DNA of 56,744 bases, filler included, from Stramenopiles sp. TOSAG23-3 (GCA_900128585.1; 3 parts of 3 records of this genome joined end to end with filler, not necessarily neighbours in it), one strand, 5' to 3'; positions 1,737 through 38,927 are shown, numbered from the whole stretch's first letter. Notes: generated by a model from the sequence alone, not told the origin. Numbers and translations: made by a program.

Positions 1737-2552
1737 TAGTAGGATTAGTACCCTCCTATCTTGATGAATTTTTGTAGTTCGTGGGAGGATGATTTTATTT
1801 ATTTTAATAGGCATATTGGTAGTCTAGTAAGTAGAATACATGGTAGAATAAAAAAACAATCCATAATTAAACTATATAGACTAGCGACCTTTTAAATTAT
1901 ATCTTATTTTTCGTATTCCTATTTAGATTCGTAAAATAAGATTCATAGTAATACTTTGAGACCCAACATGGTTCTAAAAAGCGCAAATAAAAATAATTTA
2001 TTCGTTGAGAGTTGAGAAGAATATGAAATCCTTCATTCATTCATTCATAATGAAGAATTATTAGTAGTCTATATTTTAAGGAACATGAATTTTAAATCCC
2101 ATATTTATCACTTTCTATCATACATTATTTATAGTTGACAACAGTTTTAGCAAAAAACAAAATATTATTTATTTACTGATATAATTCCTTATTAATTGTC
2201 GATTGTACAGGAGGGTGTACGTTGGGGGGTCGAACGTTTCTATTATATTTTATTTAATAAAAAATATATAAAAATAATTACTTGTTATATTCCCCTTCTT
2301 ATTGTAACGTTATTATTATTATATGAAGAAAAAGTACAACACATCAACTAAAAAAATGCATTTTTATTATCGTTTCCGGTCCGAACGTACTTTATGTGAA
2401 GGCAATGATAAATGATAAACAATACCGGGATATTTTTCCTTCGTTCTTCTTCTTTACTCGTATATAACTGACCAATTTCAAGGTGGGAACGTTTGTTTAC
2501 CTCAAAAGATTTTGCCACGTAATATTTTGGAACCAATTTCTCTCCTCCGACC

Positions 2553-4687
2553 ATGTCCAATTACAGCGTTGGGGAAGACAAAGATGTGGACTTAGAATCC
2601 TTGGCAGTAGACGATGCCGTAGCTTTTGCCGATCCGGGTCGTGCGAGGATTCCGGCCGATGCAAAGTGTATTGTAGACCCAAAAGGGGATTTTCAAGGCA
2701 ACTGGGACCTTGTGATGGTCGCCTGCTTGATGTTTACGGCAATAGTCACCCCATTTGAGGTAGCATACATTGAGCCCGCATTTAACGGCTTGTTCATCAT
2801 CAACCGTCTCGTTGATCTCCTCTTTTTAATTGACTTAATCTGTCAATTCTTTACTCCCTTTTACAACGGGAAGATGGGGGGGTATGTAATTGGGAAGGGT
2901 CAGATTGCAAAACACTACTTAATGGGGTGGTTCACGATCGATTTCGTGTCCATCCTTCCATTCGACTCTGTCGGTATGTTGCTGCAGAATGAGACGGTCA
3001 ATCAGCTGAAAATATTTCGTATCGTACGCTTGGCACGTTTGCTAAAGCTCCTGCGCGTACTTAAAGGTTCGCGCATATTCAAACGCTGGCAATCCCGCAT
3101 TGGAATGCAGCACTCTACCATGACGATGTGGAAGTATTTGATTACCGTCTTTGCTCTGTGCCATTGGCTGGCGTGCTTATGGTGGATTGTTATCGGTATC
3201 GATGATCAAACGGAACAGAAGTTCACCAGCATTTATGATGATGGGGTTGGGATGTGGAAAGTGACCAACATCACGGAAACAGTTCCACTTTCTTGGGCAA
3301 CGGGGTACGGCATGGGCACAAACGAACAGTGGGAGCAGTACCTGACCTCGGTGTACTGGTCGTGCATGACCGTAACGACCATTGGGTACGGGGACGTGAC
3401 CCCAAAGACAAACGCAGAGCGGGGCGTTGCGATATTCGGAATGTGCGTCGGTGCAGCTGCTTATGCGTTTATCGTTGGTAATATCTGTGGAATTATTGCT
3501 ACCATGGACCAAGCAACGACTGAGTTCAACGCCACGCTGGACGATTTGAACTTGTACATGGCAGAAAACAGGATTCCTCCAGAGATGCGCATTCGACTTC
3601 GCGAGTATTTCATGTACTGCAAAGGGATGCAGCGCCAAGAATATTACAAGGAACTCCTGGTGAAAATGTCGCCCGCTCTGCGTGGTGAGGTGTGCGTGTT
3701 TATAAATAAAACGTGGATCAACAGCGTGCCTTTCTTCAGTCGAAGGGGGAAGCTGGCCGCAAAGATCGGAGAAGACGAACACCGCCTCTTCATCACTGCC
3801 GTAGCAATGAAACTCACCCCGGCAGCATACGCACCCCAAGAAGTCCTCGTCCACATTGGGGAGCGAGCAGAAACGATGTTTATTATGCAGCGTGGGGTTG
3901 TCGCGAAGAAAGGTCAAATTATTGCAAGTGGAAAATATTTCGGAGAAGACATCATCCTGAAGTCTGACCGCCGAGCATACATGGTGCGTGCGTTGACGTT
4001 TGTCGATGCATTTTGTCTGACAAAGACCAGTTTGCGAGAGATCATGAACCAGGCGAGTTTCCCTGGGGTTGCGCAACAACTCCGGCGGGCGCGCTCTGCG
4101 AATCCTTTCGGCAAAGCTTTGTGCGCTTGGCAAAAATATCTGCGGGATTCGGGGGGAGCATTAGTCATAACTTGGACGCTGCTGCCGAGCAGGAAAAGAA
4201 CGCGCGGAGAGTCCATCGAACAAATGCATTCACTGGGTCTAGACCTTCCAGTGCGACCCAGACCGAACGCCCAACCGAAATGTACGTGCAAGAGTTGGAC
4301 GAACAGAAACACCAATCGGTAAGTATCAGCCCACAGAGTGGGCGCATGGTCCCCGTTGCGCATACTGCACCTCATACGCCGCATACGCCGCACTCTCAAG
4401 CGCCCAGTTCAAGTCAGCTGTCCCGATCTCGAGGAGGAAAAGTGGCTCGGTCGGGAGGACGGTCCAAACCCCCTCGTATCTTAGAGATGTTACAAAGTAG
4501 ACACGATGAATTGGTGCAAGCAATTGCGCAGGTTTCCCACCGATCCGACAAACGTGCCGATATGCTGGCCGAGCGGGTAGAAGACGTGTCGAATAAGAAA
4601 GTTTTGTTATTGACAATAATGTGCATGATTCTGAGCGGTATTTGCATTGGACTCTTGGTCAGCAATGGGCAGAAATGTTCCTCATAA
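2553..4687 (+). CDS. Cyclic-nucleotide-binding-domain K+ channel (KCNH/HCN-like), with apparent frameshift near 4090
   Basis: S1-S6 helices, S4 RIVRLARLLKLLRVLK, pore TVTTIGYGD, C-linker and CNBD (YFGE...R...VRALT). After AQQLRRA the sensible sequence continues in the 4013..4687 frame. Confidence 0.85.
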
Positions 4688-5182
4688 AAATTGTTAAGAT
4701 AGTAATAAATCATAAAATCACTTTTACTAACTACTAAGCACTAACGAACTGAGTATTTCGTACATTATACGAAGTATATTTATTAACTTCGAAATATTGG
4801 ATTCTTTGTGTTCACGTTTGTGTTAGGGTTTGGAGATTTGTCTCTCGCCAACGAGAGAACGAGAGCAAAATTTAAACTCCCCCCTCCTGTCTCCGTCCTA
4901 CTGTACTACTAGTATCTAATATTAGCTAATATAATGCTGCTGCTTCTTCTTGTCAATTTGTTGTTTTGTCGAGAAAAGTTATTAGTACGTAGTAGTCGGT
5001 ACGAAATTTTCAATAAAATATATCTATCTTCTAAGTGTTTCTCTACATCGAACCGTTTGGATATAAGCGTGCAAATTGGTTCATTAGCGATGTGCAGTAT
5101 CGCGAAGGATTCGTTTACTGCCTGAACGATTCCATTGCACTCGTATCCATCGGCTCGGCGCGATTCCTGTTCACAAGTTTCA

Positions 5183-5431
5183 ATGTTAAATCTCCTGGAG
5201 CCTGGTTCCACCCCTTTGGTAGTCTATCGTATCTTTCAACTGTCGACGGTTCTTTTGTTTCTCCTGTTGGTATTTTTGTACCTTACCGGGCTTGTTGCCA
5301 ACGTACACTTGATCGTATTGTCTGTTTTGGGACTGGGCCTTGTTGGGAGCGTAACATTTGTAGTGGGTGAACTCGGGCTGGAGGCAACGCCAGAACAGCG
5401 AAAGGAGATCGAGAAGAAAAAGGACAAGTAA
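5183..5431 (+). CDS. PKR1: ER V-ATPase assembly factor Pkr1-like (82 aa)
   Basis: EPGSTP, TM helix, NVHLIVLSVLGLGLVGSVTFVVGEL match the recalled Pkr1 pattern (EPGTSP...NIHF...W.INEL). ATG at 5183. Confidence 0.75.
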   Translation: MLNLLEPGSTPLVVYRIFQLSTVLLFLLLVFLYLTGLVANVHLIVLSVLGLGLVGSVTFVVGELGLEATPEQRKEIEKKKDK

Positions 5432-5438
5432 ACCCCAC

Positions 5439-5741
5439 ATGCCTGGGCCAGAACAGTTTAGTAAGCACCAAAGATCGTTGTTTTCCTTGTATCGCCATAC
5501 GATCCGAGTGGCCAGATCGTTTCCGGACATTGTACCTCCTCAGATCAAAGAGAAGTTCGAATACAACGTCAACTGGGCGTTTAGAACATACCGCGACGAG
5601 CCAGACCTGGAGGAGGCAAAAAGGCTTCTGGAAAGAGGAAGAAAGGCGGTCGAAGGGTTCGAAGTTCTGGCTGAATCCGAACCTGAGGTATTGGAGCACT
5701 TCTTGCGGAAGAAGGTACCGATTAGGGACCAGAAGAAATGA
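5439..5741 (+). CDS. LYR-motif (Complex1_LYR) protein
   Basis: SLYRHTIRVARSFP...AFRTYRDEPDLEEAKRLLERG fits the LYRM pattern. ATG at 5439. Confidence 0.8.
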   Translation: MPGPEQFSKHQRSLFSLYRHTIRVARSFPDIVPPQIKEKFEYNVNWAFRTYRDEPDLEEAKRLLERGRKAVEGFEVLAESEPEVLEHFLRKKVPIRDQKK

Positions 5742-6589
5742 CGTCTCTTGTTGTGGGTGACCCAAGCGACCAGGGCGCATTAAATAGCGGTGCCCCCTCG
5801 GGAAAGTACGACCCCGTGAAAGACGTGTTTTTGCGCATCAACCATTTTATTTCATCGTTTACCCCCAATGACTACGATGCGACGAAGCTTGAGTTTGCGG
5901 TCCACGCGGAAATTCGCGGCATCATTCAGCGGTACGGGAAGGTACAGGAAGAAAACGAGCTGTGCAAGAATCTCCTGGTAGAATTGAGGCAACACCTCGT
6001 GATGATCCAAACGGAAAAAAGCGTGATGCGAACCCAATATGAAAAGGACGCGGAGTTCTTGGCGTTGGAAAACAAGCGATTGGAAAAGTTGTTGAAGCAA
6101 GAGCAGGTGCGCAGCGAGTCTTTGGAGACTCAGCTCAAGTCCCAGGACCACCTGTTGAAAGAGTGGAAAGCTCGTGACTCCAACTTGCAGCGTGTGCAAG
6201 AGGCGAAAGAGTACGCGAACGACGAATGGAATCGCCAGAAGGATGTGGATTGGATGAAAAAGGTAGACGATCTCGAGCAGAAAATTGCGGGACTGACGTT
6301 GGCCCTGACCAAAGAGAAAACAAAACGCACCGTGCTGGAGGAACAAATGAATTCGGACGAAAGCAAGAACTTGATGGAGGCGAGCCTGAGGCGCCGCCTC
6401 CAAGTCACCCAGGACCGGTTAAGCTCGGAGACGGAGTCCAGCGCCCAAAACGAAAAGCATTGGCAACGATTGCTAACCGACCGTGTAGGCGAAATACGAA
6501 GCGAGTACGATGAAAAACTCCAACATTACGAAGGAACCATCCTTCGTATGCAAAGAGAAATTCAACTAATGAAAAAGCTTTGCGATTAA
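5738..6589 (+). CDS. Coiled-coil hypothetical protein
   Basis: 283-aa ORF with E/K/L/Q heptad composition and coding-like GC. ATG overlaps the upstream stop (ATGA). Confidence 0.75.
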   Translation: MTSLVVGDPSDQGALNSGAPSGKYDPVKDVFLRINHFISSFTPNDYDATKLEFAVHAEIRGIIQRYGKVQEENELCKNLLVELRQHLVMIQTEKSVMRTQYEKDAEFLALENKRLEKLLKQEQVRSESLETQLKSQDHLLKEWKARDSNLQRVQEAKEYANDEWNRQKDVDWMKKVDDLEQKIAGLTLALTKEKTKRTVLEEQMNSDESKNLMEASLRRRLQVTQDRLSSETESSAQNEKHWQRLLTDRVGEIRSEYDEKLQHYEGTILRMQREIQLMKKLCD

Positions 6590-7344
6590 CATCATTGGAT
6601 ATTTTTTACCTGGTAGGCAAATGTACTCCTAAAAGAAAATAGAGGTAAAAAATATAATAATAAGAAAAAAAAGAAATATAATAATATAATACTCGAGAGG
6701 CCCTCGGTTGCTCCTTTGATAGGATGAACACGTACTGTATTGGTACTGAAGTACAAAAAACAAAAAAGTGTAGTAAAAAAACAACGAATATTTATTTAAA
6801 CCTCCTTGAATATGAACTACGAGGATTAATAATCGCGTGCCTCCTTATTTTCATACTTCAATAGAATATTCGATTGTATATATTATATTCATAGGTACAT
6901 AGAATACGCAAATACCGTAATAAGTACCTACACCACCACCGTAGTTAGTCTAATTAAAAAAAATTAAAAATTTCATTCTTATTTGTTGTTGTTTGTTATT
7001 AAACACTATTTATTTTATTATTATTATAAATTTAAAAAATGGTCGTCCATAGTAATACGACTAAACAAATAATATTAATATACTTGGTAGTAGTATAAAA
7101 AAACAAAAATTTATTATTTTACTAATAATAATAAAGAAGCGGCGGTAGGTGGTAATAAAAATACAACAAACAACTAATACAAAGATGTTTGGCATTATTA
7201 TTCATGTTGATTAAAGAATGAATGATCAAGTGTGGGAATTGGAACGAGCAATTGAAACTGTTACTACAAGTGGGAAATTACATAACAGATTGCGTACCGA
7301 CAAGCGTTTGTATTATTTATTTGTTTCTGGAACCGTGTGAAAGA

Positions 7345-9015
7345 ATGCCAACAACGAGACGTCGTGCGACGTCCAAGAAACGTGCCGCTGCCAAGTCGCC
7401 CAAAGCGGCGGCGAAGCGAAAGAGTACCCGTTCCAAAAAGAAGGCTGCGGCGAAGAAGAGGACTGCATCAAAGCCTCGCGTAACGAATGCAGTGGCCGCT
7501 GCGGCGAAGCCCGTCGCAAAATCTCCCCACGCGGGCAAGGTGGACGGTCCCATAAAGTTCTCGGCGCCCCGAGGGCACCTGGAAATTCCGATTTTCGTCG
7601 CCGTCACGACCTACTTTGGCTACGCCATTCTTACCCTGTTTGGAAAAATTCGCGATTTTTTTGCGTCCCTGACGGGCACTGGAAGATACTATGGGAAGTC
7701 ACGCAAGGATGGGGTTGCGCCACTGATTAACAAGACTGAGAATTTTTACGACCGGCGCATGTACCACCGTATTCAAGACGTGTTCAACCGCCCAATCACG
7801 GGGCCACCCGGTGCGGGGAAAATGAAGGTGTTGGAGCGCGAGAGCACAGACTCTAACTTTAGCTTCAAGCAGACTGGGAACGAGCTGGACGTGGTCAATT
7901 TCGGGTCGTACAACTATTTGGGCTTCGCGGACGACTGGCAGGAGACTTGCGCCGCCGAAGTCTTGGAAAGTTTTGACGACTTCGGGGTTGGCCTTTGCTC
8001 CGCCCCAGCCGACGCGGGGTTCTGCAAGTACCACGTTCAACTGGAGAACATGATGGCTGAGTTTTTGGACAAAGAAGCCTGCATCGTGTACAACATGGGG
8101 TACGGGACAAATGCGACCACGATCCCTGCGCTCATGGGGAAGGGGTGCTTGGTTGTGAGTGATAGCCTGAACCACACCTCCCTCGTCAATGGAATCCGGG
8201 CGAGCGGGAGTACCGTCCGCGTCTTCAAGCACGATGACGCGTCGCATTTGGAGCAAGTGTTGCGAAAATCCATCGTGGAGGGCCAGCCCAACCGTAACCG
8301 GCCCTGGCGAAAAATCCTTGTCGTGTGCGAAGGGGTGTACAGCATGGAAGGAGAGATTTCACACTTGAAAGAGATCGTGCAGGTGTGCAAAAAGTACCGC
8401 GCGTACGTCTACTTGGACGAAGCGCACAGCATCGGGGCGATGGGACCGACTGGGCGTGGGATCACGGAGCACGCAGGGGTAGACACGGCCGACATCGACA
8501 TAATGATGGGAACATTTACAAAATCGTTTGGCGGCATGGGCGGATACATTGTCGGCTCGAAAGATTTGATCAATCACTTGCGGGAGAACGCTGGCGGGAG
8601 CGTCTACGGAATGTCCATGGCCCCTGCCATCTGCAAACAGATCATCCGGGCCCTCGAAATCATCATGCACGAGAAGGTTGGCCAGAAGAAAATTAAGGCG
8701 CTGAAAGACAATTCCAACTACTTTCGCGATGGGCTGACGAAACTAGGGCTCCAAGTGCTAGGGGACTACGATAGCCCGGTCATGCCCATACTGCTGTACA
8801 ACCCAACAAAAATTGCTGCGTTCTCGAGAGAGTGCTTGAAGAGAGGCCTGGCCGTAGTTTCCGTCGGCTTTCCTGCAACACCAGTGATATCCAGCCGCGC
8901 TCGTTTCTGTGTAAGCGCAGGGCACACGAAAGAAAACTTAGATTTCGCTTTAAAAGTCATCGACGAGGTGGCGGAATTTATGAACCTGAGATATGCCAGA
9001 AGCTGGAGCGGGTAA
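7345..9015 (+). CDS. LCB2: Serine palmitoyltransferase catalytic subunit
   Basis: FGSYNYLGFA, SDSLNHTS, EGVYSMEG, DEAHSIGA, PLP lysine GTFTKSFG, SRARFCVSAGH. Confidence 0.95.
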   Translation: MPTTRRRATSKKRAAAKSPKAAAKRKSTRSKKKAAAKKRTASKPRVTNAVAAAAKPVAKSPHAGKVDGPIKFSAPRGHLEIPIFVAVTTYFGYAILTLFGKIRDFFASLTGTGRYYGKSRKDGVAPLINKTENFYDRRMYHRIQDVFNRPITGPPGAGKMKVLERESTDSNFSFKQTGNELDVVNFGSYNYLGFADDWQETCAAEVLESFDDFGVGLCSAPADAGFCKYHVQLENMMAEFLDKEACIVYNMGYGTNATTIPALMGKGCLVVSDSLNHTSLVNGIRASGSTVRVFKHDDASHLEQVLRKSIVEGQPNRNRPWRKILVVCEGVYSMEGEISHLKEIVQVCKKYRAYVYLDEAHSIGAMGPTGRGITEHAGVDTADIDIMMGTFTKSFGGMGGYIVGSKDLINHLRENAGGSVYGMSMAPAICKQIIRALEIIMHEKVGQKKIKALKDNSNYFRDGLTKLGLQVLGDYDSPVMPILLYNPTKIAAFSRECLKRGLAVVSVGFPATPVISSRARFCVSAGHTKENLDFALKVIDEVAEFMNLRYARSWSG

Positions 9016-9325
9016 TGGAGTGTATAGTACGAAGTGTTTACACGCGCGTAATACAAAAAACAAATTTTATGAAAAACAAAATATATAGTATCTTATGTTT
9101 TAAGGATCAAGTCTCTAGTTTTTATGTATACACAAAGTAAAATTAATCTTAAAATATGTGAACTTATCGAACTGATTTTGAAAAACGTATGCATACAAAT
9201 ACTACAAACTCTGCATGCACGCGCGTACCTTATCTAAAGCCCACGATTTAAAATGAGAGTCTTAAAACATACTATATAATTTGTTTTTTTCTAAAGCCCA
9301 CTCTTTAAGTCGGGACAACATATCA

Positions 9326-11108: not shown

Positions 11109-11202
11109 AACCTTACTACTATTGATGTTTACATAAACAAAAGAGTCGCATTTATAACCTTACTACTATTGATGTTTACATAAACAAAAGAGTCGCATTT
11201 AT
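11109..11202 (+). repeat. Perfect 47-bp tandem duplication
   Basis: AACCTTACTACTATTGATGTTTACATAAACAAAAGAGTCGCATTTAT at 11109-11155 and 11156-11202. Confidence 0.95.
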
Positions 11203-11203
11203 A

Positions 11204-11470
11204 TGCACGAAATGGTGGGAAGGGACTTTCTTTCGCTTATGTGCTGAAAGGCTGTCCCTTGCCTTCCATCGCTGGCTTGTCAAAGTCTTGCCGTTGGACG
11301 GCACTTAACTTTGACTTGCAAGCTTTGGGCAGGTGGCATGCGGTCCATCCTCCTGCTCGTACCGTTGAGTTTATCTCTTCGGCCAAGGCGTACTCGCTCG
11401 TGCCGAAAGTGCAGGCGCCAAACGCCCGTGGCGACCACCGCCTTTGGGGGCGGCGAAAGTGCAAACAAAG
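11204..11470 (+). ncRNA. Unassigned structured RNA candidate
   Basis: Stems AAGGGAC/GTCCCTT, GTCAAAGT/ACTTTGAC, TGCCGT/ACGGCA, GGGCAGG/CCTGCTC, CCGCC/GGCGG. Closing stem TGCAC/GTGCA, followed by ACA. Confidence 0.5.
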
Positions 11471-11580
11471 TAAGTGTAGAACCCCCCCCTCCGTTTTCCC
11501 TTCCTGACTGCCCCCCTCCCCCCTGTTCTCAGTTTCGTTCCCTCCAGCATTGATTGTCCTTTGCGCCAGAATCTTCATTG

Positions 11581-11668
11581 TTGCAAATGATAGTACGCAT
11601 ATATAATCTGTCAATCCCCTGAGCATTGCCAGTGACGATAACATATATTTTTTAAACTTTTGATGCAA
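11581..11668 (+). ncRNA. Box C/D snoRNA, SSU guide (U in GGAUUGACAGAUU)
   Basis: Stem TTGCA/TGCAA. C ATGATAG, guide AATCTGTCAATCC (13-nt antisense to 18S) before D' CTGA, C' GTGACGA, D TTGA. Confidence 0.85.
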
Positions 11669-11723
11669 TGAAGGAGTTCGAACTAGGCTCCCCTCTCTCC
11701 GTGAATTGACTTTACCGCTTGGG

Positions 11724-11808
11724 TACACAATGAAGATAATTGTTTAGCTATCGTATGCAACATCATAACGCAGTGACGATTCAACACCTCCTACTCATTC
11801 AGAGTGTA
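11724..11808 (+). ncRNA. Box C/D snoRNA, LSU Am1449-equivalent guide (snR24/SNORD76-type site)
   Basis: Stem TACAC/GTGTA. C ATGAAGA, C' GTGACGA, guide CCTCCTACTCAT antisense to LSU AUGAGUAGGAGG, D CAGA. The +5 rule gives the A of AUGAG. Confidence 0.8.
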
Positions 11809-11914
11809 TTTGCATAGTCAAACCAACGCACGAAAATTGGAGCCCAGCCCTGGGGCTCGTGCAATCCTCACACGCACACCGCTTGCGGCACCTGTCCGCT
11901 GCCCTCACGATTTT

Positions 11915-12042
11915 TTTTTTATGATGATAAAGTTCATGCACCATACTTAAAGTAGGCTCAATTGCTGGAGGTGCGATAGCACAAAGGCGGTTGTCCGTTA
12001 CGTGTGGAGAAACGATACCCATTTCAGTCTTTCTGAAGAAAA
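11915..12042 (+). ncRNA. Box C/D snoRNA, probable SSU guide (AAGGCUGAAA, snR41-type region)
   Basis: ATGATGA at 11921, CTGA at 12033. TTTCAGTCTT pairs with one G-U. ACCATACT matches the adjacent 18S AGUAUGGU. Confidence 0.65.
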
Positions 12043-12140
12043 AAAACCTGTGAGCGAAAGCAAAGTGGCGGCGACAAGGTTTTACCCAACAGCGCATTTT
12101 TGGGGCCTTGCGACGATATGGCGGGCGCAACTGTTGAAAT

Positions 12141-12221
12141 CCGGTGATGATCACATACCCATTTAATCTGAGACTGCAATATGTTGGTGGTTTAAATTGA
12201 AGAAAAATTATGATCTGAGCT
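12141..12221 (+). ncRNA. Box C/D snoRNA, LSU guide (UUAAAUGGGUA)
   Basis: C GTGATGA at 12144, guide TACCCATTTAA, D' CTGA at 12168, C' TTGAAGA, D CTGA at 12215. Confidence 0.75.
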
Positions 12222-12413
12222 TTTCTGGTTGTCTTTCCCTGGCCCGTGAATATCCTACCCTCTCTAAATTCTCTTCTTTAGCATGAGGTATCTCCACTCT
12301 TATTGACTTTTCAACAACGGAGTGATCATTTTTTGCATGCGAGACCAAACGCAAGCATGCATTTAGTTTGACAGTTTCTGAACACCTCTAATGTTGAAAA
12401 GCGTGTGCTCTCC

Positions 12414-12475
12414 GTGAGCCGCTTTTTGCATGGTTTGTTTCTGTGAAATTGCTCATGGTAGCGGCTTGCACATTG
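12414..12475 (+). ncRNA. H/ACA-type 3' hairpin candidate
   Basis: Basal stem GAGCCGCT/AGCGGCTT with internal loop, followed by ACA-TTG. Confidence 0.5.
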
Positions 12476-12666
12476 CGTCGTTTCTCCCCTCTCTTACTCG
12501 CCTGCCACGTATCGTACAAAACAAACTAACACAAAAATTGTTGAATAATGACAGCTTCCGTGTGGAACAGAAGAAAATCGCACACTTGGTGTGGACAGCT
12601 ATGCTTGACGTAAGTAAACAGAGAGTTTCTCCCCCGCCGCCTTTCTTGTTTGCACGCTGGGGTATT

Positions 12667-12757
12667 TTTTTGAAAAAGCTGATGAATTCACTATAATTAA
12701 CCATCTTTCGGGTCTGAGAGAAATCGATGAGAGATAAATAGTAATACCTGATTCAAA
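12667..12757 (+). ncRNA. Box C/D snoRNA, LSU Gm805-equivalent guide (snR39b-like)
   Basis: Stem TTTTTGAA/TTCAAAAA. C CTGATGA, 14-nt guide ACCATCTTTCGGGT antisense to ACCCGAAAGAUGGU directly before CTGA, D CTGA at 12746. Confidence 0.9.
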
Positions 12758-13031
12758 AATGTCTGCAGCGGACAAACGTTTCCGTCCTCTACTACCACGT
12801 TCAAAACCCGTCTCTTGGGCGTGCGTCTTCATCGAAGCCGAGGGTGCTCGACCTTCTCATGCATTTTCGGTCAATAGAAAGACCAGATCAACGAGTTCAC
12901 TTATGGGTGGGTTGGCTCTAGAATAATGGAGACCAATCCAATGGTGTCTCTACATCATTACTGTCCCTTCTTTAACTTTCGTTATTGCTCGTTTCAAGTT
13001 TCAACTAACCCGTCGTTCGCTTTGCTATTAA

Positions 13032-13167
13032 AGGAACCTTCCGGGAATGCTCCCGAAAGGACACTGGCAGGATCTGCCGAAGGGGCTTCCTGAGACCGTA
13101 AGTAGCTTCATGGACCTCTGCCCTGTACTTAATGGTAATCGTGCATCACTTTCCTTGCTTTACAGCT
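13032..13167 (+). ncRNA. Structured RNA / H/ACA candidate
   Basis: Nested stems AGGAA/TTCCT, CCTTC/GAAGG, CGGGA/TCCCG, GGCAG/CTGCC, then a second domain ending ACA-GCT. H box is not canonical. Confidence 0.45.
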
Positions 13168-13513
13168 TTCTCTACTAAGGTTTGGCATACATGACACGTA
13201 CAAAAAAGGAGCCTTTATCATACTCACCTTGCAGCTGAATTCCACGGCTTCATGGTCTTACTGGCCACGACATTTTTTCAAGTTTTCCTTCTTGCCCCTC
13301 TCGATTTATCCACTGCGAATTGCACTTTGCTAACATAATCGCGCCGTACTTGCCTTGCGCCTGTAGCCCCTCGAGGGAGGAGAACCCGGCAGCAGAGTTT
13401 GCTGTTTGTGAATGTGTGCTGTAAGTTTGCCTTTGCTTTCATGTCTACAAGTCCCCACCTCTCGAAGAAACGCAATTGCCCAGAATGGATTCCGAAAAAG
13501 AAATGTGTATTGC

Positions 13514-13615
13514 TTGATATGATGAATATTTTTCATGCGCGTCAATTGAGTCACGGGGTAATTACCGTGGCAAACGTGAAAAGAACTGCTCTTTTAATCC
13601 ATAATCTCTGATTCT
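13514..13615 (+). ncRNA. Box C/D snoRNA, LSU guide for C in GUGACGCGCAUGAA (SNORD10-type site)
   Basis: C ATGATGA at 13519, guide TTCATGCGCGTCA before D' TTGA, extra antisense TTAATCCAT, D CTGA at 13608. Confidence 0.85.
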
Positions 13616-13678
13616 ACATACACGTATAATTTCTGGGAACGTCATTGTGGCAGATCATGCACGACAGATCGCGTTTTG

Positions 13679-13802
13679 TGGCAGAAGGTTTCACTCTTGC
13701 GCTTTGCACTCGTGCCAAATGAACTTCTTGGTGGTCACTCTGGTGCTTTTCAGTTCCGTTATGGAGCGTATGAGATGAACCTGGGAAAGCCATCGTACAT
13801 AA
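13679..13802 (+). ncRNA. H/ACA snoRNA, copy 1 of the repeated 3' hairpin
   Basis: H box AAATGA, hairpin GGTGGT...GCCATC, ACA at 13797. Confidence 0.65.
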
Positions 13803-14272
13803 TTTTCTCGTTTTCAAACTTTGCAAAAAATTTTACCCTCGGCGCCTAACACAGACAATTTTTTTTTGCGTAGTATGCGACCAGCCGTAAGTACAGCCTT
13901 AAAAAACCCACGTCTTTCTTTCCCGCAGGTCCTCTGCCACGACTATCTTACCACAAAATGGATGAATAGTTGCCATGGACAATGCGAAGAGCTACAGTTA
14001 AGGATGCTAGTGCCAAAGGGGAGTTCGAAGGCCTCTAGGTACGCCGAAGCTTTGATGGATGATGAGTTTCACTAGTTTCCCAACGAAATTTTGCCGCAAC
14101 CCTCTTTCTCTCACAACCATCAAGGTCCAAGTATCTAACAAGAACCATCGCATTTTTATGTACGTAGCACGTGTGCCAATGTCGGTACCAATAAAAAGAT
14201 GAAAGCGACAAAGGTAAGTGAATCGATCGAAATCTCTCAACCGCATCTATCCCTTGCTCGTCTTTGCACTAG

Positions 14273-14375
14273 TTCCGATGATAGATATTTATACTTTCGT
14301 TCTATTGAGTCTGGGGTCATGCCTGGGCGTGAAAATTATTTGAATATGTTCTACACCAAGATCCGATCTGAGGAA
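14273..14375 (+). ncRNA. Dual-guide box C/D snoRNA (SSU Am974/snR54-type site plus LSU GAUCUUGGUG region)
   Basis: Stem TTCC/GGAA. C ATGATAG, ACTTTCGTTCT before D' TTGA, CACCAAGATC upstream of D CTGA at 14368. Confidence 0.8.
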
Positions 14376-14449
14376 TTTTTGTACTGACCCCGAGCCGAGA
14401 ACTGGAAGCAACCGTTCCCCGAAGCTGCACAAACGCTTTGCACAACAAT

Positions 14450-14532
14450 CAAGATATGAAGAAAACTATTGGTCCGTGTTTACGATCGCTACTAAAACTA
14501 GCATGAACTCACCTATAACCATGCCGATCTTG
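14450..14532 (+). ncRNA. Box C/D snoRNA U18/snR18-like (LSU Am649 equivalent)
   Basis: Stem CAAGA/TCTTG. C ATGAAGA, guide TTGGTCCGTGTTT antisense to AAACACGGACCAA, D' ACGA, D CCGA. Confidence 0.85.
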
Positions 14533-14573
14533 CAGAAGCATTGCCGTGTGCTGGTTCGGAAGGAAACGCAACT

Positions 14574-14665
14574 TGTCCTGATGATTATCGTATTTCTGAC
14601 ACCTCTTGTACGATGTTATGTAGGCGACTGCATATCAATGAACGTATATACGATTGTCTGAACAT
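14574..14665 (+). ncRNA. Box C/D snoRNA, snR48-type LSU region guide
   Basis: C CTGATGA at 14578, TTTCTGACACCTCT antisense to AGAGGUGUCAGAAA, degenerate D', D CTGA at 14658. Confidence 0.8.
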
Positions 14666-14731
14666 TTGCGCAAAGCTTTCCGGTTCGAGCGCGTCGACCC
14701 CCTCTTCTCTCTCTCCCTCCCTCCCTCCCTG

Positions 14732-14837
14732 TTCGTGATGCACCGCTGATTATATTATAGCAAAACATAGCCGTTTACCCGTCGTACTAATTACCATGGC
14801 GACTATCGACTTGAATGAGGTGTGTATGAGCTGAAAA
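14732..14837 (+). ncRNA. Box C/D snoRNA, LSU guide (CGGGUAAACGGC)
   Basis: C-like GTGATGC, 12-nt antisense GCCGTTTACCCG (14770-14781), D CTGA at 14831. Confidence 0.7.
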
Positions 14838-14859
14838 CTTAGTCAAAACACGAATAGAC

Positions 14860-14933
14860 GAAGATGACGAAACTTATGGATTCCCCTTCTTGATTTGCAG
14901 GTAGTCCAACTTGTATGTAGATTAATCTGAAGG
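14860..14933 (+). ncRNA. Box C/D snoRNA, LSU guide (AAGGGGAAUCC)
   Basis: C ATGACGA at 14864, GGATTCCCCTT before D' TTGA, D CTGA at 14927. Confidence 0.75.
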
Positions 14934-15181
14934 CTTTAGCCACCCGATTCGTATGCGATGGCACTTGGCATCATCGTAATACTGCCGTGTTTTACTATTT
15001 GATTTATATCAGCGTCCCCGTTCTTTTGTTGTCGAAGTGATCATGTTTTCAGTCCGCCACGAAAGAAAAGCATATTCTAATGCACGATTTGGTTTTGAGT
15101 TGCCACGCAATTCACTGTACTATCCCTTGTGCTTCGCTTTTATGCAAGAGAACCAATAAAAGTTTTTTGTTAAGCTTGGTC

Positions 15182-15241
15182 GGTGGTCATTCTGGCGCTT
15201 TTCAGCCAATGAGAAGAACCTGGGAAAGCCATCGTACAATT
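15182..15241 (+). ncRNA. H/ACA hairpin, copy 2
   Basis: Near-identical to 15490-15549 and 13730-13802. ACA at 15236. 5' half unclear. Confidence 0.65.
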
Positions 15242-15412
15242 TTATTATCTCCCTCTTCAAAAGAAATATGACAAAAGACATTTTATCTAACTCTTTCAAA
15301 CTCTTAGAACTACAAACAGCGGCACGGAATTGCCGAGGCACTGAAGTGCAACGTGAAAACGAACAGCAGGGTAAGTGGATTCTTCAAACGCTCCTCTTTA
15401 TGCTCTTTTTTA

Positions 15413-15549
15413 CCACCCCGCCAAACCAGCTTGCGTTGCATACTATTTCCCATAATCGCGAGTTAAACTGGGCGGGTAGAAAAACTTTTGGTGGTCATTC
15501 TGGCGCTTCTCAGTCAATGTGAAGAACCTGGGAAAGCCACCATACATTT
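15413..15549 (+). ncRNA. Two-hairpin H/ACA snoRNA (copy 3 of the repeated hairpin)
   Basis: 5' hairpin CCCGCC/GGCGGG plus AGCTTGCG/CGCGAGTT, H box AGAAAA at 15478, 3' hairpin GGTGGT/GCCACC, ACA-TTT at 15544. Confidence 0.8.
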
Positions 15550-15704
15550 GTTTGTCTCTTCACGCATCGCAAAATATTAAATTACTAACCTCACTCGTAG
15601 CACTCGGTCTGAGTGACCCAATAGTCCCAAGAATGATTTGTCGAGTAAGTATTGTCCATGGTGTTGAATCTCCACCCCTTCCTGCACACGTATCTAGAAG
15701 TCGA

Positions 15705-15790
15705 GGCTAATGATGAATAAACCTAACCTAAGAAACTTGAATTCAGAGTTCACGCTGTGATGAACCAAATTTGCACGTCAGTCTGAAGTC
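15705..15790 (+). ncRNA. Box C/D snoRNA snR72-like (LSU Am876 equivalent)
   Basis: C ATGATGA at 15710, D' TTGA, C' GTGATGA, guide ATTTGCACGTCAG antisense to CUGACGUGCAAAU, D CTGA at 15783. Confidence 0.9.
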
Positions 15791-16209
15791 TTTTGTACTT
15801 TACTAGTTTGTTGGTGCTTGGAAAGCTCTCTCCACCCTTCTTTTCCAAAAATGTATACGCTAACACGTCTTTCTCGTAAATCTTTTCTTTCAGTTCGGTG
15901 CTGAACGTGCTTCATTTATCGTATTTAAAAATGAAATATAAAATTAAAAACAATTTTCTTAATATCAGTAAAACTTTACCGGACAGAAATTTAAGTTCTT
16001 AAATACTTCGTTAATTCTTTTAACTTTTATCAATATGAACGTAATATATATATATGTTTTTTTTTATTCATATGTAAAATTCATACACACGGCTACCCTC
16101 TCGCACATCTTATGTCCTCAACCAGTGTAAAAATGCGTACGTAACGAGTTGCGAAGAAATCCGAACCGAACCTTCTTCTCCTGCTGATCTCTCGGCCTTT
16201 CCTTATAGC

Positions 16210-26741: not shown

Positions 26742-27865
26742 GATTGGTCTTAAAGTGTGGGTGTGTCTTCTCGTCAACTGATGTGCCTGGTACAAGAAAT
26801 GTAACAGCTGAAATAATATTTGGTCGTGATTTAAAATTTTTAGTCGTTCGATATGCTTGTTTGCAGAAGAAATCGTTTTGTCTAATACTTTGTTTCCTGT
26901 TCTTTTTCCTAACAGAATTCCTATATACAATGAAATGATCACATCAGAAGTTAGTGACTTCCATGTTTGGTAGTTCTTTTTAGAAGAAGGTGGTAACTAA
27001 GAACACAACGTGAATATGATGATGATGACATATTATTTTACTTTTTTTTTGATAAACAAATAACAATGCTGTGCAATGTAATGTTGGGTCATTTATTTCA
27101 TCAACACCTCAAGAAGATTCTTCTTTTTTTCTTCTTCTTCTTCTTCTCGAATAATTCTTTTGAATACCCAAAAAACAGGTATCTAATATTAGACTATTAT
27201 ACCACAGCAGAAAGACACGCACAAGAAGTATAATTAAATATATATGCAGGTAGAAAGAAAAAAGAAAAAATTACGATCTTTTGTTTTTTCACAAGTGTCG
27301 GTCCACCAGGACCCAGCACTACGCGTATTTCACCGCAAAAATAAAAAAAATCCAAGGTATATTTATTATAGTCTATTTAAATACAGTAGAAAAATAATAT
27401 ACATTACTATATAAATATATTATTTATATTATATCTTTATATAAATTATGTTGTATTTTCCTATTCAAATTTATACTTAGACACTATTATATTAGGATTT
27501 TTTGGAATCGACTTGAAGATGAAGTTAGGTACGAGATATAAATCGAAAAAAAAAAGAAGAAAAAAAAGAAGAAGAAGAAGAAGAAGAAGAAGAAGAAGAA
27601 GAAGAAGAAGAAGAAGAAGAAGAAGAAGAAGAAGAATATATAATTCCCCCCAGCACCACCCACCCACCAACCTCCTTCCTACCGTGTCAAACCAGAACCC
27701 GTTCCTTTACTTCAAACAACATTAAAAAAATCATCTAAAATGAATGTACAGACTATAATGAAGATAGAAAGAAATGTGCTGTATGTATTTATATCATTTA
27801 TTTATTTGCGAAATCATTCATTTCAACACAACGAACTGTGCCCAGAAATTACTACAATCACTACC

Positions 27866-31672: not shown

Positions 31673-33547
31673 TTACATTCCTGGGGGGCTTAACAACCTG
31701 ATGACTGCATCCCAATCGGTTCGTTTTCTTTTGCTTGGGGAAGATGAAGACGATTGAGACGATGAAGACTGGGAGTACGACTGAGATGGGTAGCGTTGAG
31801 CAGCTGCTGGCATTTTTCTCTTTTGAAAGGACTGCGCATGGCACGCTTCTCTCGCGCTCGGTGGTATCGACGCTGGAGGTGGGGCCGTTTGCGGTACATC
31901 CCATCCAAAGAAGTTGCATTTCAGTGGATCGTTGCGCTGCTTGCTACAACAAAAGAAAAATCGCCCTTGGTTGGTCCCTGCCTTTCTGACCTGCACTCGC
32001 TTTGATTCAACGTTGCACTGGCAATTAGGATATACCCTTGCATCTTCCAAATCAAATTCCTCTAATATTTTTCGTCGAACATCATCCCATGTTTTTCTTG
32101 CTTCCTCCAACCAAGATACGATGTCTGCGTGACCACTCTCAAAGTCCACGGCTAACGAAGACGTTTTGATGCACCTGTCTGAAAACCCAACTACTTGAAG
32201 GCCAGTTTTGCTTGTGCTTCGTGAGAGCGCTACGTACGCCTGGCCGTCTGCGAACGCATCTTGAAGAAACACAATTAGTCGATCGATGCTCATACCTTGA
32301 GACTTGTGAATCGTAATGGCCCATGCAAGTTTCAAGGGAATTTGAAACCGAATCGCGCTCCCTAAGCCACGAACCTCCCTGGAAAATCCGTGGGGTAGGA
32401 TAGTGTAAGGCTCTGCTCGAGAAGTAAATTTCACAACCGGCAGAAACGGAAAGTCGTGGGTCTCTGCTTGGGCCAACTCTCTCTCCAGCTCAGCTGCAGC
32501 GCTTGGGTCACCCTGCTGCAAAGCCTTTTTAATTCTTTCATTTAGCTCTTTGCAGTGCTCAATCGCCGTTTTGATCCCGACCACTACACCTCGTGACCCA
32601 TTCACCAGCTTGGAGCCTATGTTTTCATTCTGGAGCAGCATCACTTGGGCCCCCACCTTCAACTCGAGCACCTTCTTCACGCGGCACTGGTGCGGTTCGA
32701 AAAAGCGATTCAGTAGGTATCGCTCGTTTCGTGACAGACTCCGCTGCTTCACCTCGGCTTCAATCTGATCCTTAGCGAGAAACGTTACAAGGCCGCCTTC
32801 CAGTGTCATTAGTTCCCCATGGTTCTCCCTATCTACATCAATGTTCTTGCAGTACAATTTTGTGGGGATGATGCCATTCACCGTTTCCAGCGCCGCTCGG
32901 CAGTCTGTCACGAGTTGGGTGACATCGCTGGTTATGTTGCCCTGGCGAATAGCTTGGAGCGCTTGCACCATCTGCTTTTCCCCCCCTTGCCTATGTACAT
33001 GCGTTAGTCTTACGGTTTGAATTTCGGCATACCCTCTGTTCAGAAACACTTCGTCCACTCTGGCCAAGTGGACCTTCCCGTGTTTTTTGTACCGAAGGTC
33101 GTTGGCCCCGGGCGGTACTTGTACAGGTGGCAGTTGGAGAAAATCGCCGCACACAATAACCTGGACGCCGCCAAAAGCCCTGTTTCCGGGGTCTTGCCTT
33201 ATCGTTCGGATCTGAGCTTCAATGTTGTCCAGCATCTCACCGCTGCACATGGATATTTCATCGATTATCATGACCTCGACCTTCCGCAGCTGTTTTTTTC
33301 GACTCCACATCTTTTCAAAATCGGACCTCGTTTTGGGCATTCCTATGCCACAATACGAATTCAATGTGCAACCATTGACGTTTACCGCTGCTATTCCTGT
33401 GGGAGCCATAACCACAAATTCCCTGTCTTTCAACGCCATCTGGATGTGCTTCAACAACAAGCTCTTCCCAGTACCAGCAACCCCTGTAATGAAGACATTT
33501 TGACCCTTCATAACCATATCTAACGCGGCTTGTTGGGTCGTCCACAT
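31673..33547 (-). CDS. Pif1-family SF1B helicase with C-terminal GRF zinc finger
   Basis: GVAGTGKS, APTGIAA, IIDEISM, GDFLQLPPV, LVNGSRG, QIPLKLAWAITIHKSQGMS, GQAYVALSR; C-terminal CQC...NQGRFFFCC...CNFFGWD. Confidence 0.95.
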   Translation of the reverse strand: MWTTQQAALDMVMKGQNVFITGVAGTGKSLLLKHIQMALKDREFVVMAPTGIAAVNVNGCTLNSYCGIGMPKTRSDFEKMWSRKKQLRKVEVMIIDEISMCSGEMLDNIEAQIRTIRQDPGNRAFGGVQVIVCGDFLQLPPVQVPPGANDLRYKKHGKVHLARVDEVFLNRGYAEIQTVRLTHVHRQGGEKQMVQALQAIRQGNITSDVTQLVTDCRAALETVNGIIPTKLYCKNIDVDRENHGELMTLEGGLVTFLAKDQIEAEVKQRSLSRNERYLLNRFFEPHQCRVKKVLELKVGAQVMLLQNENIGSKLVNGSRGVVVGIKTAIEHCKELNERIKKALQQGDPSAAAELERELAQAETHDFPFLPVVKFTSRAEPYTILPHGFSREVRGLGSAIRFQIPLKLAWAITIHKSQGMSIDRLIVFLQDAFADGQAYVALSRSTSKTGLQVVGFSDRCIKTSSLAVDFESGHADIVSWLEEARKTWDDVRRKILEEFDLEDARVYPNCQCNVESKRVQVRKAGTNQGRFFFCCSKQRNDPLKCNFFGWDVPQTAPPPASIPPSAREACHAQSFQKRKMPAAAQRYPSQSYSQSSSSQSSSSSPSKRKRTDWDAVIRLLSPPGM

Positions 33548-33980
33548 AGCAGGACAGGTCGATTGAACTTTTTTTTAACTCTTCGAGATCCCTCGCCCGC
33601 ATTATCTCGGTGACATCCTCCACTTCGTCGTCGCTGTCTTCAGCCTCTCCGTCCTTCGGCAGCTCGGGGGCTAGCGGCAGATCTGGTAATGGACGGGGCA
33701 GCGCGCTCTGCGCGCTGTACGGGGCGGCACTATTCGGTGGAACCCTCTCCGCCTTTACTTTCGGTTCCGACGCAGTCCCCGTTTCTGGCGACGCGGCACC
33801 ACCGTCGCTTAAACCGCTCTGCATCGCCTCCTCGAAGTACGCGGAGGCCTCATGCCTTGTGTTAAATCCTCTAAAGCGAGTCCCAGGAAGGCCCTCGGTC
33901 AGTTCCAACACTTTGGAAAAATCTGTGTGCACCCCTGCGTCGGCTCCTACGACTACGGCGTAAAAAGCTTTCGGCTTCAT
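33548..33980 (-). CDS. RNase H1 N-terminal hybrid-binding (Cauli_VI) domain, probable N-terminus of the Pif1 gene (frameshifted)
   Basis: FYAVVVG...GVHTDF...TEG.PG.RFRGF.T..EA..Y. The ORF runs out of frame into the Pif1 ORF with no AT-rich spacer. Confidence 0.75.
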
Positions 33981-36586: not shown

Positions 36587-37740
36587 TCACAAGAACTCTT
36601 TCAGACTGTCTCGGACAAGAAAGTACAGCGCCAACCCCATGGCTGAAATTACTGCGGACCCAACTTGGTACAAGAGCCGCATTGTGACTCTTATCCCGGC
36701 GACACGGGTGGCAGCCAGCTCGTGCCCTTGCAACCATTCATCCCAAAGTTCTGGGCCGATAAATTGTCGGTTACCCACAAGGTCCTTTATTCGAGCATCG
36801 TTGAGCAATGTTCGCTTCCAGTACAGCCAGTCCCGGTCCGCACGAGTCAGACCAAACCATGCCAAAAAGAAGAAGCACAACATTACTACCCCCATGAAGC
36901 ACATGAAAAATACCTGCACAATTCTCCCCGTGTCGCTCACGTTCGGGTTCGTACCCGCAGCAATAATAATAAAAACCGCCACAATGAGTGCCAAGGGCAC
37001 CGTGCCCATGAAGGCCATCACTGTGCCAACGCCTTTCGTGACTTCACGCGCAAACTTGTCCCCGTCGTCCTGGAGCGTAGCAATTTCGTTCAAAATCCGA
37101 CGATAGTTGGGCCCTTTGGTATTGATGTCGTCCGTGCAGGACATTTTCAGCAAAAGCGATCTCAGTTTCCGAACATGGCGCTCCTCTTCCCTGGCCCACG
37201 CCTCGTTGATATATTTTATCATGTGCATGGATAGAAACTGTTGTTGCCCTGCGTTCCATGTAGAGATCCACCCGAGGATAAAAACGATAACGGCAATCGT
37301 CCAGGAATGCGGCCCGAACGGTTGCGAGGACACCATCTCCCCCTCCAGGGGCAAGATAAAAAAGTACCCCAGAAGGGGGGTCGCCACCAGCATGTTGAAC
37401 CCTGTCCCAAAAAATTGTCCCTTCAACCGTTTCTCTAAAACAGCGACGTGTTTCCTGTCGGACAAAAGAAAGCGGTTCCATATCGACCCTGATTCCGAAA
37501 AGTTCGGGGAATTCCATTGCGCTGAAATCATCGAAATCGGCATCAGTATGGCCATGCTAACCGCAAACGCAGCAAGCCTCGTTACGCCATAAAAGAGCAA
37601 GCCAAACATAAGCTGCTGAAATACCGCTGCAACAGCAAAGATCATTTTGTTTCGCTTCGAACTGCTTGCGCTAATACCCAACAAGTGTCGAACGACAGGA
37701 GGGAGCTCGGTGTTGCTCTGAAAGGGTTCTAGGCCGGGCT
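36587..37740 (-). CDS. Multi-pass membrane protein (7TMIC/GR-like candidate), 5'-truncated
   Basis: About 7 hydrophobic segments. 5' end abuts an inverted duplicate of Pif1 sequence. Confidence 0.7.
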
Positions 37741-37819
37741 CCAACAAGCCGCGTTAGATATGGTTATGAAGGGTCAAAATGTCTTCATTACAGGGGTTGC
37801 TGGTACTGGGAAGAGCTTG
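37741..37819 (+). repeat. 79-bp exact inverted copy of 33458-33536 (probable chimera)
   Basis: Identical reverse complement located at the very end of the contig. Confidence 0.9.
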
Positions 37820-37919
37820 NNNNNNNNNNNNNNNNNNNNNNNNNNNNNNNNNNNNNNNNNNNNTTAATTAATTAANNNNNNNNNNNNNNNNNNNNNNNNN
37901 NNNNNNNNNNNNNNNNNNN
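37820..37919. other. Artificial contig linker
   Basis: N44-TTAATTAATTAA-N44. Confidence 0.97.
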
Positions 37920-38927
37920 CATGTCCGCGGACAGAGTGTCCGTCATTCTGTGCAGGTGCGCGACGATGAGGTAGTAACTCTTCAAGTGGGGCAGCGCCTT
38001 TGGGTTGCTGCTGAGATCAAAAAAATTCTTTAAGGCCTGGCGAAACTTCGGGACCACGCCTTCGCCGTCCAACCGTTTCTTCAATTTTTCGAACTCGCGC
38101 GCGTTCGCCTTCGTCATCTTGAGCTTTTCGAATTCTTTCGACATCGCCAGCACCTCGGGCAAATGCTTGATGTTGATGTGGTCGGACAAAATCTGCGGGT
38201 GCTGGTATAGGCGCTGGGTTTCGAACAGTATCCCGTCGTCCCCAAACTGCTGGCTCCAACTGTAGTAGTACCAGACGGCCGTCGGGATGCAAATGATCAG
38301 GGTCACCATGTAGAAGATGAGGACAATGTTCTGGTTGTCCCCATCGACCAAGAATTTTGGAAGGCCAATACTGACCTCCATCGATTGCCGCCCATCTGGG
38401 TTACCCCACTTTTCCCAGTTCTCTCTCGCCTCCTTGTCGGTGAGGGCGGCGTAGGCTTTGGCAATGGCCATAAACCGTCGCTCCGCGTCAGGGTCCTTGT
38501 TCTTGTCCGGGTGCCACTTCAAACTCTGCACCCTGTAGGCCCTCTTGATCTGCCGCTCGTTCGAGCCGTGCTCGACCTCCAATATCTTGAACGGGTCGTA
38601 CGAGGCGATCTCGCTGTCTTCGTTGACGAGCCCAAGGACGAAGAAGAAAATGTACCATCCCGCCACGACGACGAACAGCTTGACCAGGAAGCTTTTGGTG
38701 AAGAGCGAGCTCCACTTTCGCTTGTCCTGCTCGATCTTGGTGAACTTTTCCGTCTCCTCCTTGGTCCGCGCTTTCTCGCTAAGCTCATACTTTTGCGTTC
38801 TTAAATACAAAAAACTAGCGATTCGCTTCACCAAGTAGTAACTGAACGGCGTCAGAAATATCACCAGGATGGTGGTGAAGAAGTAGTAAAACGCAGAGTT
38901 ATCATAGTCCAAACGCGACCCTGGCAT
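37920..38927 (-). CDS. SEC63: Translocon subunit Sec63, 3'-truncated by contig end
   Basis: LDYDNSAFYYF, three TMs, J domain with WHPDKN, WGNPDGRQ...IGLP. Confidence 0.95.

Follow-up and report, generated by a model that had tools for sequence, protein, structure and literature searches.

Layout of the locus

The DNA considered here is a 56,744-nucleotide (nt) stretch from Stramenopiles sp. TOSAG23-3 (GCA_900128585.1), referred to below as the window, with positions counted from its start. Between 5183 and 6589 on its plus strand lie three open reading frames (ORFs) in immediate succession, which encode proteins of 82, 100 and 283 amino acids (aa), respectively a Pkr1-family protein, a LYR-motif protein and a putative coiled-coil protein, and which an initial annotation had proposed to be carried by one polycistronic mRNA. 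The features of the locus are the following, X1, X3 and X13 being RNA sequencing runs.

5131..5182, plus strand: minimal 5' leader; the X1 RNA contig starts at 5131 and an X3 contig at 5152
5183..5431, plus strand: ORF1, 82-aa Pkr1-family membrane protein (Pfam match); start context tcaATGt
5432..5438, plus strand: 7-nt spacer between ORF1 and ORF2, from the sequence itself; bridged by X1 and X13 RNA contigs
5439..5741, plus strand: ORF2, 100-aa LYR-motif protein (Pfam match); start context cacATGc
5738..5741, plus strand: ATGA, in which the ORF2 stop overlaps the ORF3 start, from the sequence itself; bridged by X1 and X3 RNA contigs
5738..6589, plus strand: ORF3, 283-aa predicted coiled-coil protein of no named family, recognized by its homologues; start context gaaATGa
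6590..6618, plus strand: minimal 3' untranslated stretch; the X1 RNA contig ends at 6618

The ATG at 5183 opens ORF1, which a TAA at 5429-5431 closes; ORF2 extends from 5439 (ATG) to a TGA stop at 5739-5741, and the ORF3 ATG occupies 5738-5740. On re-reading of the sequence the coordinates first assigned to the ORFs, the spacer and the ATGA all proved exact. ORF1 and ORF3 share a reading frame and ORF2 lies in a different one; the ATGs of ORF2 and ORF3 are each preceded in frame by a stop codon, at a distance of 78 and 15 nt, respectively.

The window as a whole consists of ORFs of about 50% guanine plus cytosine (GC) alternating with spacers of 25-30% GC, the GC-rich stretches mostly containing one long ORF each. 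The same-strand spacers that flank the locus measure approximately 495 nt (4688-5182) and 755 nt (6590-7344), and five other pairs of same-strand neighbors (ORFs of at least 150 aa) are 502-1005 nt apart. Given that same-strand neighbors are thus separated by 495-1005 nt, the distances of 7 nt and -4 nt within the locus are exceptional in this window, and the contrast with AT-rich spacers of hundreds of base pairs that was originally drawn is borne out.

Three independent protein-coding genes

ORF1 matches the Pfam family Pkr1 (PF08636) with 34.1 bits (cut-off 27.7, E 3.1e-8) over profile positions 11-68 of 73, and possesses one long hydrophobic stretch at residues 10-66. Pkr1 has a role in assembly of the V-ATPase. 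A homologue with 83% identity is called as a separate protein in a related species.

ORF2 matches Complex1_LYR (PF05347) with 36.7 bits (cut-off 24.8, E 4.1e-9) and carries the L-Y-R tripeptide at residues 17-19, LYR-motif proteins being mitochondrial assembly factors. Its homologue in the related species, again separately called, has 99 aa, is 86% identical and likewise lacks an internal methionine. The nearest clusters in the Atlas are LYR families (PF05347), the closest of them being commonest in Oomycota, and a sequence search of the PDB with ORF2 matched no solved LYR structure.

ORF3 is, judging from its sequence, a lineage-restricted coiled-coil protein. Neither ORF3 itself nor any of the six members of its family reached the Pfam threshold for a family, a profile search of the PDB gave no meaningful match, and the neighbors in the Atlas were only generic coiled coils. 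An exhaustive search among 1.84 billion representatives returned five homologues. In one of these, a 270-aa protein with 37% identity whose cluster includes a member that its source assigns to the MAST-4 stramenopiles, the alignment begins at ORF3 residue 19; given that the next in-frame methionine of ORF3 is M89, the N-terminus must be coding and the start of ORF3 must lie at or very near 5738. The related species has a separately called homologue with 73% identity (P0002, P0041), which is 49 residues shorter at the N-terminus and in which the block FTPxxYDxTKLEFAVH is missing, although the block is kept in the more distant P0043 and P0044.

The same codon-position pattern, in which GC content is lowest at position 2, is common to each of the three ORFs and to the neighboring genes: at positions 3/1/2 it is 0.55/0.59/0.28 in ORF1, 0.58/0.55/0.36 in ORF2 and 0.64/0.56/0.30 in ORF3, as compared to 0.69/0.53/0.44 and 0.58/0.51/0.41 in the neighbors. 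All three proteins are represented in collections of marine metagenomes and in a set of protist proteins, and public collections list exact copies and strain variants of ORF1-3 as separate calls, in clusters of 13, 5 and 14 members. Each of the three ORFs is an independent conserved protein-coding gene.

A different explanation for the layout would be one gene broken by assembly errors, unrecognized introns or frameshifts, or one real gene accompanied by chance ORFs, and ORF pairs that look split do occur elsewhere in the window (2553-4322/4280-4687 and 40597-41574/41585-42715). At this locus, however, two different and complete Pfam families score above their cut-offs, strain variants and the related species yield the same proteins as separate calls, stop codons stand in frame before the ORF2 and ORF3 ATGs at the distances given above, and neither ORF junction shows an insertion or deletion (indel) in the RNA contigs described below or in the DNA-like run X18. 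A broken gene is therefore extremely improbable, and on the codon pattern, the separate homologues, the Pfam matches and the indel-free junctions we ruled out a single broken gene. The view that the Pkr1 and LYR proteins are complete and unrelated thus holds, given their Pfam matches and separate homologues, and the argument first made from it against one broken gene is confirmed by the reading frames and the gap-free RNA junctions as well.

The start of ORF1 and the sequence upstream

An ORF that starts at 4934 lies in the frame of ORF1 and is parted from it only by the stop at 5123-5125. This codon varies by strain, being TGA here and Trp or Ser elsewhere (X18 has G>C at 5124), and as a consequence gene callers give extended Pkr1 proteins of 165-167 aa. 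When such over-extended calls from two species were compared, similarity started essentially at the ORF1 methionine and nothing upstream of it aligned. This onset supports the start at 5183, and the lack of any alignment upstream indicates that the two species have diverged enough for non-coding sequence no longer to align.

Codon-position GC in 4934-5125 is flat (0.39/0.35/0.38 at positions 3/1/2). Lacking both codon periodicity and conservation in the relative, the 4934-5182 extension is probably non-coding, either leader or promoter sequence. The starts of RNA contigs at 5131 and 5152, in two studies, may hint faintly at the true 5' end. No AATAAA is present in 5100-6800.

RNA contigs across the locus

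Twenty of the 23 listed sequencing runs contain all or part of the stretch (13 studies; 12 runs recorded as RNA). We aligned the contigs of three RNA runs from three studies (X1, X3 and X13), together with those of X18, over 2400-9200. Assembled contigs of this kind merge overlapping transcripts, and they show neither starts, ends nor strand.

A single 1488-nt contig in X1 corresponds to 5131-6618 and contains all three ORFs, without gaps and with two differing letters. A contig in X13, a poly(A) library, extends over 5317-5586 and bridges ORF1 and ORF2, and one in X3 extends over 5433-6174 and bridges ORF2 and ORF3. Two of the three RNA runs (X1 and X13) thus bridge the ORF1/ORF2 junction, with over 31 nt to either side of it, and two (X1 and X3) bridge the ORF2/ORF3 junction. 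With the X1 contig colinear over all three ORFs and each junction bridged in two runs, the proposal of one polycistronic mRNA is supported at the level of contigs.

The initial annotation had pointed to splicing or read correction as a way in which the ORFs might yet be fused. The contigs of the three RNA runs contain no splice joints and no loose ends within the locus, and the sole indel listed inside it, the absence of 2 nt at 6257 from one X3 contig, falls in a run of A within ORF3, where it is likely to be a strain difference or an assembly slip. Since there is neither a joint nor an indel at the junctions, neither splicing nor correction brings the RNA into one frame. In the same A run a metagenomic contig of this species (L001) has G>A, and the other runs agree with the window.

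The RNA runs lack contig cover at about 4698-5130 and at 6619-7271, which X18 covers, and the neighboring gene lies on separate RNA contigs of different depth; neither the gaps in cover nor contig depth was counted as evidence.

Tightly packed eukaryotic genes are also known to be expressed by way of a polycistronic precursor from which individual mRNAs are cut, one per gene; the spliced-leader trans-splicing of kinetoplastids and nematode operons is an example. Nothing specific at this locus speaks for such a route. Against it, the RNA contigs show no loose ends or foreign leader in the locus (although contigs drop rare forms), ORF1 and ORF2 are joined on a contig of the poly(A) library X13, and given that ORF2 and ORF3 overlap no cut could yield two complete, non-overlapping mRNAs. 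We consider a cut precursor very unlikely.

Depletion of ATG and the start-codon contexts

The region 5000-5760 contains ATGs only at 5090, 5183, 5439 and 5738. Since none occurs between 5093 and 5183, and 5131-5182 is accordingly free of them, a ribosome scanning from about 5131 would meet exactly three start codons, and would meet them in order. Within ORF1 there is no internal ATG in any frame and within ORF2 there is none, so that the 552 nt following the ORF1 ATG hold a single ATG, which is the start of ORF2; ORF3 has 13 internal ATGs. In 552-nt segments drawn from 20 other ORFs (ORF3 included) the mean is 9.6 ATGs, and at most one is found in 2 of 597 segments. Across the whole stretch, 0.8% of such segments on the plus strand and 1.7% on the minus strand are equally poor in ATG. 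At the protein level, the 180 aa of ORF1 and ORF2 together contain no internal methionine (P about 0.009 at the local methionine frequency of 2.6%), and the homologues of both in the related species likewise have none.

The start contexts of the two upstream ORFs depart from local usage. Fourteen of 20 other genes of the window, a small sample, have A at position -3, whereas ORF1 has T and ORF2 has C. By the general eukaryotic rule a purine at -3 makes a strong context, and this rule is the sole ground for calling the context of ORF3 strong. Relative to shuffled sequence there is no excess RNA structure at the ORF1/ORF2 junction (z +1.62) or before the ATGA (z -0.07), and thus no sign of an internal ribosome entry element at the junctions. 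Taken together, the scarcity of ATG and the weak contexts of ORF1 and ORF2 are the pattern expected under leaky scanning.

A probable tricistronic mRNA read mainly by leaky scanning

The reading that we consider probable is that the locus gives rise to a true tricistronic mRNA which is read mainly by leaky scanning. One transcription unit would produce a mature mRNA of about 1.5 kb, covering at least 5131-6618 and carrying the three separate genes. Ribosomes would load at the 5' end and scan, and part of them would initiate at the ORF1 AUG in its weak context; those bypassing it would next reach the AUG of ORF2, again in a weak context, and those bypassing this as well would encounter no further AUG before that of ORF3. 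The ATGA overlap might add some termination-reinitiation at ORF3. What the data show directly is the layout, the coding nature of each ORF, the bridging contigs and the scarcity of ATG; the presence of all three ORFs on one and the same molecule, and the translation of each from it, we infer.

Several observations weigh against this reading. On the RNA side, all three ORFs lie on one contig in only one of the three runs (X1), and a further X3 contig (record 17, 5152-5458), of which no more than 20 nt lie in ORF2, was not counted as a bridge. A contig that extends across several genes is in any case no proof of a single transcript, as overlapping transcripts would be merged. With respect to the leader, strain contigs whose kind, DNA or RNA, is not on record carry ORF calls from 4934, and if these contigs are RNA the leader gains two ATGs (4934 and 5090). 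When the codons were resampled synonymously (n=5000), a mean of 2.17 ATGs was obtained and at most one in 23% of cases (P 0.23); for these amino-acid sequences the lack of out-of-frame ATGs is thus not significant, so that the scarcity of ATG is due mainly to missing methionine and residue composition. The chance that both upstream ORFs would lack a purine at -3 is about 0.09, which makes the start-context signal weak, and the G at -3 of ORF3 is seen in none of the 20 local genes. Finally, conservation of gene order and junctions in the related species is deduced solely from protein ends and contig sizes; its contigs with ORF3 and LYR calls measure 1013 and 1018 nt, a suggestive size in that ORF2 and ORF3 together would barely fill it.

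Given that contigs are unable to separate overlapping molecules, and that the locus was assembled in pieces in X3 and X13, it is reasonable to ask whether three overlapping monocistronic transcripts, with promoters in the upstream ORFs and poly(A) sites in the downstream ones, were merged by short-read assembly. Overlapping transcripts are known in very compact eukaryotic genomes. The present genome is less compact, however, its same-strand neighbors being 495-1005 nt apart with AT-rich spacers between them, and no AATAAA is found inside the locus, although the poly(A) signal of this lineage may differ. Overlapping monocistronic transcripts would, moreover, leave unexplained both the absence of ATG and methionine from ORF1 and ORF2, here and in the relative, and the absence of the local A at -3. 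On balance we regard this explanation as unlikely.

The same tricistronic mRNA might instead have its downstream ORFs translated mainly by termination-reinitiation, 7 nt after ORF1 and at the ATGA after ORF2. The overlap and the short spacer suit such a mechanism, and a weak hint comes from the relative, in which the LYR protein is one residue shorter and the ORF3 homologue starts M-N, compatible with an ATGA because every Asn codon has A as its first base, a condition that about one residue in three would satisfy. On the other hand, reinitiation is generally inefficient after ORFs of 82 and 100 codons in the absence of a dedicated upstream element, the sequence before the ATGA shows no excess structure, and reinitiation alone needs neither an ATG-free stretch nor weak upstream contexts. 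We judge it quite improbable as the main mechanism. Both leaky scanning and reinitiation had been put forward at the outset: leaky scanning gains from the scarcity of ATG and the weak contexts and is the better supported of the two, and reinitiation, less well supported, might contribute at ORF3 through the ATGA.

Comparison with known systems

Hundreds of polycistronic nuclear mRNAs are described in green algae in passages of PMC7896298, which also report the LYR motif to be common among polycistronically expressed proteins. For green-algal bicistrons, excerpts of PMC11892635 give medians of 291-357 nt for ORF1, leaders of 54-83 nt and inter-ORF gaps of 40-183 nt, along with a weak Kozak-like sequence at ORF1 and depletion of AUG before ORF2; in the same excerpts mutation of the ORF1 context alters ORF2 output, and leaky scanning is shown experimentally. 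The corresponding values here are 249 nt for ORF1 and at least 52 nt for the leader. Like the polycistrons of Chlamydomonas, Chromochloris and Auxenochlorella, therefore, the locus has a small ORF1, a short leader and very short gaps, and it also shares with them the weak upstream start context, the AUG depletion and the encoding of unrelated small proteins of which one is a LYR protein. It differs in that the host is probably a heterotrophic marine stramenopile, and in that three ORFs follow one another with 7 nt between the first two and 4 nt shared by the last two, a closer spacing than the gap medians of 40-183 nt published for the algae. The green-algal cases are experimentally backed, whereas the locus here is known from sequence and assembled contigs.

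In human cells the leader of the MiD51/MIEF1 mRNA encodes altMiD51, a 70-aa LYR-motif protein, and passages of PMC5703645 show co-expression from one transcript. Here too a LYR protein would share its mRNA with an unrelated protein encoded downstream, but as the middle one of three ORFs and not as the first of two.

The remaining known systems resemble the locus in part. Termination-reinitiation at overlapping stop and start codons operates in caliciviruses and on segment 7 of influenza B, where an upstream element that pairs with 18S rRNA is needed; the ATGA between ORF2 and ORF3 is likewise an overlap of stop and start, but the scarcity of ATG points to scanning. The spliced-leader operons of nematodes and kinetoplastids, whose precursors are cut into single-gene mRNAs, likewise have several genes per transcription unit, but they are unlike the present case in that ORF2 and ORF3 overlap, the junctions are bridged by contigs and no leader is seen.

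A scan of metagenomes gave 269 pattern matches with one confirmed, namely the 1280-nt contig L001 of the same species, and in a scan of viral contigs none of 525 pattern matches was confirmed. Our literature search found no report of nuclear polycistrons in stramenopiles; subscription journals and supplements were outside its scope and absence is not proven.

Other closely spaced ORFs in the window

The other genes of the window include a lysosomal phospholipase B, TMEM144 and TMEM138, which fit a heterotrophic flagellate. Together with the marine metagenome occurrences, the MAST-4 label in the cluster of the ORF3 homologue and the Oomycota affinity of the ORF2 cluster, they hint at a marine stramenopile as the probable host and speak against a green alga. 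Four other tight or overlapping ORF pairs occur, which have the appearance of split genes or are of unsettled nature. The small ORFs of other candidate polycistrons in the window, among those tested, matched no Pfam family, and their exact sequences were absent from the protein collection.

At 2553-4322 an ORF for a channel of the cyclic-nucleotide-gated type overlaps by 43 nt a 135-aa ORF with a hydrophobic tail in another frame (4280-4687). With 36 ATGs upstream of the second start, leaky scanning is unlikely for this pair, which could be one gene split by a frameshift in the assembly or the strain; X18 has a 1-letter gap somewhere within 3883-4393. At 40597-41574 (325 aa, no family) and 41585-42715 (376 aa, Myb domain) two ORFs lie on the same strand, 10 nt apart and in different frames, and given the 14 ATGs before the second start a gene split by an intron or a frameshift is likelier than a polycistron.

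A 68-aa ORF at 27519-27739 ends 14 nt before the ATG (27740) of a 1109-aa ORF, and the 218 nt between the two start codons are free of ATG. This small ORF is possibly an upstream ORF or a second small cistron; it matched no Pfam family, and its exact sequence was absent from the protein collection searched.

On the minus strand, two ORFs of about 350 aa at 36587-38927 are 226 nt apart, the upstream one having a DnaJ domain and a weak match to Sec63. They are probably one intron-containing gene, in which case the genome would have introns. Also on the minus strand, at 31673-33980, an ORF for a PIF1-type helicase overlaps by 233 nt an ORF with an RNase H1 N-terminal domain, and this pair may be split or frameshifted. 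The 4.8 kb at 11158-15925 have a gene-like GC content (0.42-0.56), yet on neither strand does any ORF there exceed 135 aa; the stretch may be a gene with many introns, a gene in decay or an extended non-coding region.

Significance

If confirmed, the locus would extend the occurrence of green-algal-type polycistronic nuclear mRNAs to a second and distant lineage, in a heterotrophic marine protist known mainly from environmental sequence. What stands out is the probable lineage, the very tight packing of three ORFs and the renewed appearance of a LYR protein in a messenger of this type. The case is open to study through public metatranscriptomes, and it implies that gene finders which assume one ORF per transcript will miss or fuse protist genes of this kind.

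It would also bring to three the independent cases in which a LYR-motif protein shares its mRNA with unrelated proteins, and the question of why LYR proteins are so often polycistronic would become directly testable. We suggest only tentatively, as an idea that is possible but on the whole doubtful, that leaky-scanning polycistrons are widespread in eukaryotes for small proteins, uncultured marine stramenopiles included, and that LYR factors were recruited into them repeatedly or anciently in green algae, vertebrates and stramenopiles. Were this true, such a pattern of recruitment would suggest selection for fixed translation ratios set by start-codon context.

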